A stretch of DNA of 64,000 nucleotides from the NCBI RefSeq assembly GCF_056712565.1, contig NZ_JBWXXM010000002.1, one strand, 5' to 3'. Origin of the DNA: a plasmid. Below, one piece after another: positions 42,001-45,000 of this stretch; the first letter of the stretch is position 1; each line of letters opens with the position of its first letter. A program made the position numbers.

Positions 42001-45000
42001 TGCTCGAAAGATTCTATTTCAAGCGTCCGCTGAGCATGGAGTACGCGGCATGGCTACGTGTAATGTGTGCAGGCTTGTTATTGGTTTTTATTCAGGTTGC
42101 TCCACAATTTACACTTCTGTATACCCTTAAACTTGTCACGCTTATTAATCTTGGAATCCAGACAATGAAATTAAATGGCGTGTACAAATATAAAAGAACG
42201 GGAATTTTGCCTCCGGGAGGGGCACTCTCTAATCTCACCAGACTTAACCCGTTCAAGAAAAAATAAAGTTATGCGCCCGTGAGGGCGCTATTCATCAAAG
42301 GCATTTCGCATAAGCTTGATCATTGCTTTTTTACCAGCTTCAATATTACGAATGTAGCGCATAACCATTTCTTCATTCGACCAGTTCCCCATTTCCATAA
42401 TCTGTGGTAGCGAGTAACCTTCAATATTTAGCTGTATCGCTCCGCCTACACGAACGCTGTGCCCTGTCCAGTAACGAGTTTTAGTCTCATTTGGATAAAG
42501 CTCATTCCACATCTCTTTAAATGCTCGTAAAAGGGAATTTTTGCTGAGCATACCGGCATCGTCCACAGTGTCTTCTTCATCTTCATCGTTCAGAAGACTT
42601 TGCTTAGCACGATAGGGTAGGTTATGCCTTTTAAGAAGTTCAGATAGCTCATTCCCCTTACTCCGAAGCTTCCAGCCGGGTGGCATATAGCCTGTATCAT
42701 GGAAATTTACGGCCTGGAAAAGGAATTCATCCGGATGACTGTGCTGATCCATTTTCACGAGGTTCATCAATCTCAAGAGGCAGTTAGTTAACTGACGTGT
42801 CAGCCGGTAGGTAAGAAGTGTACTAATGTTCGTTTTTGTACGGTATACCGTCAGGTTAAATTCACCGGTCATACTATCCAGAGACAGATCTTTCAGACGT
42901 ATACGTCGAATTTCGGATGAACGGAGCAGTGTTTCAAAGCCTGTCCAGATCAGGCACAGGTCACGAAGTTTACGAACTGAGTTTGTAGTACTGCGTAACT
43001 TTATCAGAGCCTTGAGATCGCCAATAAGAAAGGGAGTTGCCTGTTTAGTCGTCTTTCGCTTCCGGGCTTCCGATTGTTTTAAGGCTTCCAGCATGTACCA
43101 TGCTTCAGACGTAATAATCCCGGGCAGGTTAAGCCCTTTTTTATGGATACTATTTAAGGCCTGAAGACAGCTGTTTATGCTGCTTCGTGACAATTTGCCT
43201 TCAAGATGCCCCATAAACGCAAGCAGAGCGTCCTCAGACACGGGGAGCGAACTTACTGGCCAGTCTGTATGCAACCGGGCATTCGCCAGATACCATTCGT
43301 TCCATACTCGTAGCCAGTGCAGATAGGTTTTAGCAGTGTTGTATCTCAGATGGGAAAAGTAACGGATCAAGCGTGAAAGCTGTTTATCATGGTTGCCGAA
43401 CGTTTCCAGCTGCTGATGCAATTCGCTTTCCGAAAACTGTCTGATCACTGATTGATTCTTCATCCTGCTCACCGGGATACACTGGTTTTAATTACAGGTC
43501 ATTTTAGCACTCATGTACCTGGTTATGAACAGGGTGGAAACAACGAAAAAGGTTGTGAAATCGTTAGGCTTAAGTGAAAAATGATATTAAGATTATCCCT
43601 GGCCAGTTGAGGCCTGTCTAAAGAAGGTTGATTATGTCTGACACAAAGCAGTCTTATTTAATGAAATTCCGTAAGTGTAGTTCGTTCGAAACGCTCGAAA
43701 AAGTATTTGAAAGGTTATGTGAAAAAAACTCGGGTGTCGCCTCTCTTGAAATTTCTGGTGCTTATGATCATCGTAAAGCCGAACTGACAATGAAAAAGTT
43801 ATATGACAAAGTTCCTGCGAGTGTGTGGACCTTTGTTCGCGAGTAATTATTAATATTGGCACAACAAAAAGACTGTGCCTAGATTTGAAAATAGTTTATG
43901 CCCCTTTCGGGGCTAAAGGCATTGTAATAGCCTGTCTTTTAAAGTTGTTTATTAAGTTCGGAGAAAAACTTTAATCATAAGCCAAGCCCACTGCTAAATA
44001 CATCCGATATTCTCCTTCATTTTATTAGAAGTGATAAAAGTTACTTTACCTAAACTTCTCTCTCAATATTTGTAAGGCTCTCATTTGATTTTTGTCAAAC
44101 ATTAATCTGGAAGACGGAAAAATCATTTCTTTTAATACGTTTTACAGAAATCCTCCTCCGTTATTTCGGATATAGTTTGAATCATTATCAAAAACGGGGT
44201 GCAGCCATGCGTAAGAGTTATACATTTGGTATTCCATTTGGACTCCAGCGAGAATCAGGACTCTTTTTAGATATTACAGAGGTCAGCCGGGGTATTGACT
44301 GTAACTGCATCTGCCCCGCTTGCAAAACTGATCTGTTAGCAAAGCAGGGGGAGGTCAAGCTTTGGCATTTCTCACACAGTACAGCTGTAGCCGGTGACTG
44401 TGATGGTCTGATGGAAGCCATCCGGGGAAAGATTATTGAAGTCATCAACGAGCACCAGGTTCTTGGTTTCCCAAATCTTCTCGCTGGCGACGATGGTGGG
44501 CCGGTTTCACTGAATGAGGTTAGTGGAAGCGGCAGTATGTTCGGAGGCACAGCTGATCTGTTCGTAAAGGTTAATGATTTATGTGTGGCCGTCTTTCTGG
44601 ACAGGGATCGCAGCATTTCAGAGAAGTTAACCTTTGACCATCTTCATCCTTCCGAAAGAGTTGCCGCATTGCGTATCGATCTTCCTGATATTGAATATGA
44701 AATCAGTCAGGTGCAGCTCGGGCGACGTAAAACAACATACAGTGAGTGCATTGAAAGCCTGATCATTGATGAGACCAGTTCCCGGGAATGGCTATATCAT
44801 CCATTAATGCATGAACTTGAATCTGAACCTCTTCAGGAGTATCGGGGACGGGAGCCTTCAGAGGAAGGGCCTCTTCTTCAGCGCCTTGCTGACTGTAAGA
44901 TGAAATTGCCTGATATCCTTCCGGGCAGTCATAACGCGCTAGTCAGGTTACAGCAGGATACGATTGTATGTCTGTGTCGGTTAACGGTTCGGGCTTATGA

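Follow-up and report, generated by a model that had tools for sequence, protein, structure and literature searches.

A putative LexA operator upstream of a Cre-type recombinase gene that diverges from hha in the IncHI plasmid backbone

Dimer resolution is the job of several Cre-like enzymes, among them Cre of bacteriophage P1 itself, ResD of the F plasmid and Rsd of the Salmonella virulence plasmid. In the ResD/rfsF and Rsd/crs systems the recombination site lies beside the recombinase gene. These two Cre-related recombinases on large enterobacterial plasmids give a functional precedent for dimer resolution, and we know of no LexA control for either system. Here we describe a Cre-type tyrosine recombinase gene and the divergent hha gene next to it in a 64-kb stretch of plasmid DNA (contig NZ_JBWXXM010000002.1, assembly GCF_056712565.1). 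The whole stretch is called the window, and positions are window coordinates unless another sequence is named. The same gene order and orientation are found in R0182-R0186 of the IncHI1 plasmid R27, where R0182 is described as Hha, R0183 as '42.86 pct identical to 56 residues of Cre, bacteriophage P1', R0184 and R0185 as unknown and R0186 as Tus-like (PMC4853401 Table S2, 2016). Integron integrases (IntI) are likewise tyrosine recombinases on mobile elements, and many of their lineages have retained an E. coli-type LexA box in the promoter (PMC3108266). We give a probability of roughly 70% to the reading that the locus is a backbone module of IncHI plasmids in which an Hha partner of H-NS stands next to a LexA-controlled Cre-type recombinase for on-demand plasmid recombination.

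Both members of the pair are real genes rather than chance open reading frames (ORFs), and their identities as an Hha/YmoA-family protein and a Cre-type recombinase are close to certain. The recombinase ORF spans 42288..43472 on the minus strand (394 amino acids from a GTG); the RefSeq start is the ATG at 43463, which gives 391 amino acids and has a better Shine-Dalgarno sequence than the GTG at 43472. The hha ORF spans 43628..43846 on the plus strand (72 amino acids from a TTG), and its RefSeq start at the ATG at 43634 gives 70 amino acids. Because the two 5′ ends face each other, 155-170 bp apart, the genes are divergent, as a preliminary description of 42288-43846 had stated. In public IncHI2A annotation the products are named 'tyrosine-type recombinase/integrase' and 'Hha/YmoA family nucleoid-associated regulatory protein', and the gene pair, the IncHI assignment and the Cre resemblance have all been publicly annotated before. 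The pair itself is routine annotation, and the finding is an ordinary one with one modest regulatory novelty. New, and likewise modest, are the conserved putative LexA operator on a Cre-type plasmid recombinase gene, which the preliminary description had not noted, and the lack of an adjacent lox-like site.

The recombinase matched Pfam Phage_integrase (PF00589; E 1.8e-13, 51 bits against a cut-off of 27.1). Its best sequence match among solved structures was P1 Cre (phmmer, E 1.9e-23), and all matches listed with E values up to 1 were Cre or Tre, an engineered Cre derivative. A structural model of the protein was built with AlphaFold (AF2) from a 21-sequence alignment, A5 (mean predicted local distance difference test score 79). 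When the PDB was searched with this model using Foldseek, ranks 1-33 were Cre or Tre (E ~1e-18, target template modeling score 0.72-0.81), whereas the next folds, integron integrase and XerH, were ten orders of magnitude weaker (E 1.8e-8). Residues R181, K210, H335, R338, W361 and Y370 correspond to R173, K201, H289, R292, W315 and Y324 of Cre, which include the Cre-typical Trp (W315), and all six are invariant in A5. Despite the shared catalytic residues, the window protein and Cre are only ~26% identical. Compared with Cre and with a Cre-like protein of Pantoea ananatis, the family has a longer N-terminus and a specific insertion of ~56 amino acids (roughly residues 240-305), of which the first half is conserved and the remainder contains an acidic loop, modeled with low confidence and apparently disordered. 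The recombinase is a member of a distinct subfamily of the Cre-type enzymes. Integron integrases, in contrast, belong to another recombinase subfamily, and no attI/attC-type array is associated with the window recombinase.

Identity to the recombinase declines gradually among its homologues, from 99% to 35%, and relatives are present in ~3,800 PLSDB plasmid records, 1,336 of them from Klebsiella. We compared 12 lineages, that is, the window and eleven others comprising IncHI1, Pantoea pPSP-a3e, Klebsiella IncFIB/MOBH, a Photorhabdus contig, a Rahnella-type contig and several metagenomic contigs. The divergent neighbor of the recombinase gene was hha in 9 of the 11 other lineages. The Photorhabdus contig had a truncated hha remnant adjoining a Tn3-family transposon, the Rahnella-type contig had a YeeR_C-domain gene between the recombinase gene and hha, and in one short contig (L009) the recombinase gene was in a different, non-IncHI context. 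In 10 of these 11 lineages a Tus-like gene followed at a distance of two to five genes from the recombinase gene; the contig of L011 was too short, and L009 had none.

The predicted promoter of the recombinase gene consists of a -35 element TTCATA (43529-43524), a 17-nt spacer and an extended -10 element TGC-TAAAAT (43509-43501). The putative LexA box (Table 1) starts one base after the -10 element and ends 17 nt before the ATG, and would therefore cover the expected transcription start. When the hha-recombinase spacers of four lineages were aligned, one conserved block was seen, located just before the recombinase start and composed of TGCTAAAAT followed by CTGT-N8-ACAG. The LexA box of beta- and gammaproteobacteria is CTGTatatatatACAG, of the CTGT-N8-ACAG type (PMC3108266), and the element found here is a box of this type at the predicted promoter and start. 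A LexA weight matrix recovered the boxes of umuDC (25.3 bits), beside the qnrB6 copies (20.5 bits) and beside intI1 (14.6 bits) in the IncHI2 plasmid pAMSH1 (NZ_CP030940.1). The qnrB and intI1 boxes are documented LexA targets, and LexA control of IntI is what PMC3108266 deals with. With the same matrix the recombinase box was the best match in the window, in which a single other site exceeded 12 bits, and shuffled windows gave an expectation of 0.3 matches of at least 14 bits per window. The other site (12043-12062, 12.7 bits, TGCTGCTTTTGAATACAGTG) lies inside the rsp gene and probably arose by chance.

A box of 11.0-22.0 bits was found 16-36 nt before the recombinase start in all 12 lineages, over a range of 35-100% recombinase identity, and in 11 of them it was the best match to the matrix in the whole 5-13 kb locus. 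When the 12 sequences were aligned on the box, only the extended -10 element (TGnTAnnAT), the CTG/CAG arms and the A/T-rich center were conserved, and the flanking sequence had diverged to the point of being unalignable. The box was kept in L009, where the recombinase gene lies outside the IncHI context. IncHI1 shares the promoter-plus-box layout with a stronger box, which has an ACAG half-site and scored 18.4 bits versus 15.3 bits for the CCAG box of IncHI2. Because this layout recurs in 12 lineages, we consider it quite probable that the recombinase gene is repressed by LexA and induced in the SOS response. The literature searched contained no description of the function of R0183, nor of LexA or SOS control of R0183, of Cre-type recombinases or of plasmid resolution recombinases. 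The minus strand held one more promoter-like sequence (43620-43592, 10 of 12 consensus positions), which was not conserved in IncHI1 or Pantoea and is probably fortuitous.

Table 1. Features of the recombinase-hha locus and its neighborhood (window coordinates)
Feature	Position	Strand	Basis
Cre-type tyrosine recombinase gene, R27 R0183 orthologue	42288..43463	-	ORF, Pfam Phage_integrase, Cre matches
hha (Hha/YmoA-family H-NS co-regulator), R27 R0182 orthologue	43634..43846	+	Pfam HHA
Predicted sigma-70 promoter of the recombinase gene	43501..43529	-	Consensus scan, 9/12 matches
Putative LexA operator ACCTGTAATTAAAACCAGTG, core CTGT-N8-CCAG	43480..43499	-	LexA matrix, 15.3 bits
Tus-like replication-terminus-binding protein gene, R27 R0186 orthologue	40091..41071	+	Pfam Ter, E 4.6e-19
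Two conserved genes, R27 R0185 and R0184 orthologues (301 and ~115 amino acids)	41081..42266	+	ORFs, annotation
CoiA N-terminal-like domain gene, downstream of hha	44177..45289 (RefSeq start 44207)	+	Pfam CoiA_N, E 6.3e-8

Under this reading, LexA would hold the recombinase promoter down in undamaged cells. DNA damage, or single-stranded plasmid DNA entering a recipient, would lead to RecA-stimulated cleavage of LexA and to release of the recombinase, which would then carry out site-specific recombination of the plasmid on demand. Our best guess for this recombination, held tentatively, is the resolution of plasmid dimers made by RecA, because Cre and Cre-like plasmid enzymes do so, because RecA activity both makes dimers and inactivates LexA, and because the gene adjoins the plasmid's own gene for a Tus-like terminus protein.

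Several points weigh against the proposal of a LexA-controlled recombinase that resolves dimers. The weight matrix came from an uncurated set of twenty E. coli boxes, although boxes present on the plasmid served to validate it. With 15.3 bits and a CCAG half-site, the IncHI2 box is among the weaker ones, and in the Photorhabdus box, which scored 11 bits, CTA replaces CTG. In R27 microarrays R0183 gave a sizeable signal without DNA damage, and this signal rose 2.4-fold from 25°C to 37°C (PMC7366339), so that the repression would have to be leaky or partial, or other inputs exist. A recombination site was sought by inverted- and direct-repeat searches and by scans with arms of 10-16 bp and spacers of 4-12 bp in the window, the 12 homologous loci, the whole of pAMSH1 and 41 kb of IncHI1 sequence, and both intergenic regions were aligned. 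No lox-like candidate (two inverted arms of 13-15 bp) with at most two mismatches at spacers of 6-8 bp was present in 39-46 kb, no lox-like repeat was conserved across the 12 loci or between the window and the 41 kb of IncHI1, and no direct-repeat array was found near the recombinase gene. Finally, deletion of R0183 alone did not reduce the stability of R27 in E. coli MG1655 (PMC4853401), a result that, like the missing repeats, speaks against dimer resolution in particular. SOS control would explain why this deletion had no phenotype under unstressed growth, and SOS induction is the condition under which such a phenotype should be looked for.

Rather than LexA, the conserved palindrome might bind the recombinase itself or a different plasmid regulator as an operator, or be a mere part of the promoter. 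The LexA site is predicted from sequence, the box is weak in IncHI2 and Photorhabdus, and in R27 a change of temperature shifts R0183 and hha in concert, a hint that SOS is not the only input. We nevertheless regard such an alternative as unlikely. The conserved features, namely CTG/CAG arms at a 10-nt spacing around an A/T-rich center, are exactly those of the LexA box of beta- and gammaproteobacteria (PMC3108266). The scores fall within the range of the E. coli boxes used to build the matrix, and several exceed that of the box beside intI1. In addition, a site bound by the recombinase itself should change along with the protein, whose identity ranges over 35-100%.

LexA control of the recombinase also has to be set against another possibility, an ordinary constitutive multimer-resolution enzyme that acts on a simple site beside its gene, as in Cre/loxP or ResD/rfsF. 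The Cre-type fold and catalytic residues, the almost exclusively plasmid-borne occurrence of the gene, the dimer resolution known for Cre, ResD and Rsd, and the R0183 transcript that is detectable without induction are all compatible with it. However, no lox-like inverted repeat was conserved within several kb of the gene in any of the 12 lineages, although the same scans found their positive controls: identical code recovered loxP in a P1-like plasmid. The absence of a nearby direct-repeat array and the stability of R27 after R0183 deletion also argue against this possibility, and the conserved putative LexA operator speaks against simple constitutive expression. Taken with both sides of this evidence, the constitutive enzyme is improbable. 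The other control was P. ananatis pOC5aB (L006 4612-4645), in which a Cre-like gene, whose 345-amino-acid product is 28% identical to the window recombinase, has the near-perfect lox-like site ATAACTTCATATA-attgacat-TATATGAAGTTAG 170 bp upstream of it.

The nearby inverted-repeat site that the preliminary description had suggested looking for was thus not borne out by any conserved candidate in the window or the 12 loci. A 12-10-12 inverted repeat just after hha (43852-43885) was not conserved in other lineages, which speaks against its being a recombination site, and could act as a weak terminator. The spacer downstream of hha contained no conserved block in the lineage alignments. For the strong palindromes found elsewhere, position suggested terminator-like hairpins, intercistronic hairpins, iteron-like repeats of RepHI2 or, near mobI, probable repeats of the oriT region.

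Integration had been named beside multimer resolution as a possible function, a guess at the level of the protein family, and of the two the Cre-type enzyme fits resolution better, with the reservations about a conserved site and the stable R0183 deletion given above. An integrase function, with insertion of all or some of the plasmid into the chromosome or its excision, is very improbable for the recombinase. Its membership of the Pfam Phage_integrase family and its match to the PHROG 'integrase' group would allow this, and 9 of 407 places in complete E. coli genomes were chromosomal. However, the other 398 were on plasmids, a distribution that does not suggest an integrative lifestyle; no chromosomal integration junctions were evident in these genomes, and the sole chromosomal match among those listed was a short fragment of low identity with no junction at the gene. 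The model has a Cre-type fold, the Cre alignment spans the protein, and no separate N-terminal domain is seen, the extra length being accounted for by a short N-terminal extension and one internal insertion. The gene order around the recombinase gene is also collinear between IncHI1 and IncHI2, so that no insertion ends at this gene.

IncHI2 plasmids are important vehicles for mcr and extended-spectrum beta-lactamase genes. If the recombinase is truly under SOS control, quinolones and other SOS-inducing drugs, as well as plasmid entry into recipients, would switch on a site-specific recombinase on these plasmids. After the integron integrases, this would be the second example of recombination on resistance elements that is driven by the DNA-damage response. 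A wider proposal, which we consider rather doubtful, is that tus, R0185, R0184, the recombinase gene and hha form a damage-triggered DNA-rearrangement module of IncHI1, IncHI2 and Klebsiella-type MOBH plasmids, with a target other than an adjacent lox-like site. The target might then be the Tus-defined replication terminus of the plasmid, or single-stranded or folded DNA during transfer, and SOS-inducing antibiotics would directly trigger plasmid dimer resolution, co-integration or rearrangement.

Other LexA-like boxes were found on related elements. In P1 (L023, X03453.1, 97-116) and in a P1-like plasmid (L004 4422-4441), the strong box ACCTGTAAATCCATACAGTT (18.2 bits) lies 28 bp after loxP. 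It is in the upstream region of cre, as is the box described here for the window recombinase gene, but it is ~30 bp upstream of the annotated pR1 -35 element of the cra-cre operon and, unlike the window box, not over the transcription start. Its position hints that SOS input could be an old and overlooked trait of Cre-type recombinases. In pAMSH1, outside the window, a match of 22.5 bits (197421-197440) lies upstream of a hypothetical gene at 197645, and one of 18.0 bits (101867-101886) lies inside a TraE/TraK-family transfer gene (101709-102497). Together with the umuDC box, these matches suggest that the plasmid may carry a small SOS regulon of its own.

The product of hha matched Pfam HHA (PF05321; E 9.3e-19, 67.9 bits against a cut-off of 25), with residues 12-67 covering positions 1-56 of the 57-position profile, and belongs to this family. 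Its scores against the NCBIfam models Hha (NF008191; 75.6 bits, cut-off 90) and YdgT (NF007703; 46 bits, cut-off 101) were both below the cut-offs; it is therefore a plasmid paralogue and not the chromosomal protein. The protein aligned without gaps to E. coli Hha (PDB 1jw2/2mw2), to Salmonella Hha in its complex with H-NS (4icg) and to YmoA, and was 50% identical to E. coli Hha, 44% to YdgT and 90% to the IncHI1 plasmid Hha. It has the same fold family and length as the chromosomal Hha, YmoA and YdgT (Cnu) proteins of Enterobacteriaceae and shares with them the ADHR motif that contains D48 and the C-terminal P-x-S-V-W. In contrast to chromosomal hha, its gene is plasmid-borne, is paired with a recombinase gene and has no tomB-like gene upstream. 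D48 of Hha is reported to be essential for H-NS binding (PMC4519777). The equivalent residue, D45 of the 70-amino-acid protein, was invariant in 12 of 12 aligned sequences, as were the adjacent His-Arg and the C-terminal P-x-S-x-W. The view of this protein as a genuine Hha homologue, which was to be given up if residues needed for H-NS interaction were missing, survives the alignment because the D48 equivalent is retained.

In R27, hha (R0182) and H-NS have been implicated in thermoregulated transfer and are described as repressing transfer at the non-permissive temperature (PMC7366339 and PMC9598596, both citing Forns 2005), and hha expression rose 2.5-fold from 25°C to 37°C (PMC7366339). The link to thermoregulated transfer made in the preliminary description is consistent with these statements and with the identity of the window protein to IncHI1 Hha. 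On the basis of that 90% identity and the R27 literature, the plasmid Hha most likely forms complexes with H-NS and would help to silence transfer genes at 37°C. Having no DNA binding of its own, Hha would join H-NS, either the chromosomal protein or one that the plasmid itself may encode ~29 kb away and outside the window, and with both proteins present AT-rich plasmid genes, among them the transfer activator at 37°C, would be silenced more strongly. It is highly improbable that the plasmid protein acts mainly as a toxin of the Hha/TomB type or independently of H-NS: H-NS-independent effects are reported for chromosomal Hha (PMC4519777), and the score is under the NCBIfam Hha subfamily cut-off, but there is no small partner gene upstream of hha, where 10 of 12 lineages have the divergent recombinase gene as the neighbor. 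In addition, the Asp that contacts H-NS is invariant, and in R27 joint repression of conjugation by hha and H-NS at the non-permissive temperature has been described (PMC7366339, citing Forns 2005).

A plasmid-encoded H-NS outside the window, for which the preliminary description had proposed a search, is present in typical IncHI2 backbones and absent from pAMSH1. Both tblastn and a motif scan were negative for hns in the window and in pAMSH1, and a 75-amino-acid ORF with a weak match was rejected as H-NS. In the IncHI1 plasmid, hns is ~13 kb from hha. A protein 81% identical to IncHI1 H-NS is encoded on 736 plasmid records; two of these were opened, both IncHI2A, and they contained a complete hns (L021, 4001-4405) and an IS26-truncated copy (L022, 2899-3255; pPK8217-MCR1). 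By synteny, the hns locus would lie ~29 kb beyond hha, ~10 kb past the right end of the window. In pAMSH1, which was the closest relative examined, an IS1 copy occupies the syntenic position, at about 186.5-187.3 kb, from which we infer that this plasmid lost hns by an IS1-associated deletion. Other IncHI2 plasmids have hns intact. Some widespread IncHI2 lineages keep hha and have lost their own hns.

The window belongs to the IncHI2 backbone. Positions 1-45791 and 46988-64000 are collinear with pAMSH1 (typed IncHI2A, MOBH, MPF_F) at 99.97-99.99% identity, and the 4 kb around the recombinase-hha pair are 100% identical in many plasmids typed IncHI2A / MOBH / MPF_F. The typed relatives thus agree with the IncHI-type replicon assumed earlier. 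The region at 20-45 kb, which had been taken for an AT-rich accessory block, proved to be conserved IncHI backbone that is collinear between IncHI2 and IncHI1. In pAMSH1 it contains trhN, trhI, an AAA ATPase gene, DUF3150, VWA and toprim genes, a run of ~300-codon genes and the Tus-like gene, followed by two unknown genes, the recombinase gene and hha, and the order is identical in an IncHI1 plasmid. The equivalence with R27 ORFs is based on gene order and ORF descriptions, and identities were measured on the IncHI1 plasmid pPSJ-16_1, for which they were 90% for Hha and 63% for the recombinase. A difference from the window is an IS1-RepFIA-IS1 insertion just beyond hha in IncHI1. The tus/R0185/R0184/recombinase/hha cluster is a conserved backbone module of IncHI-type plasmids.

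The sole difference between the window and pAMSH1 was a 1.2-kb IS5 copy at 45792-46987 (transposase ORF 45860-46840). It splits an InaA-family kinase gene ahead of the tellurite-resistance (ter) cluster, and the flanking matches overlap by 4 bp.

The Tus-like gene (40091-41071) is kept near the recombinase gene in nearly all lineages. The E. coli-type Ter core GTTGTAAC occurred twice in the window, versus 1.4 matches expected, and neither match was near tus; this count was uninformative. The R0185 and R0184 orthologues, flanked by tus on one side and the recombinase gene with its 3′ end on the other, had no match in Pfam, NCBIfam or PHROG. Their synteny is retained in IncHI1, Pantoea, Klebsiella and metagenomic lineages. 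The gene downstream of hha, a frequent neighbor of the pair, is named CoiA family protein in some RefSeq IncHI2 records, and the gene that follows hha in L008, L011 and L014 is recorded with Pfam CoiA_N. IncHI1, Pantoea and Klebsiella-type plasmids have a similar-sized gene there that is annotated as hypothetical.

Related elements with interleaved alternative hairpins (e.g. TCTCCCATAGGGATTTCTCCCTATGGGAGAAATCCC) were found at 33379-33448, 34385-34452, 35374-35439 and 36379-36549, where they lie in the spacers between five consecutive ~300-codon genes and are in some cases followed by a T-run. They look like intercistronic terminators or attenuators. A similar element is present in the syntenic spacer of IncHI1 (L020 32062-32103). 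Among the five genes, only the fourth and fifth were detectably paralogous, with 27% identity.

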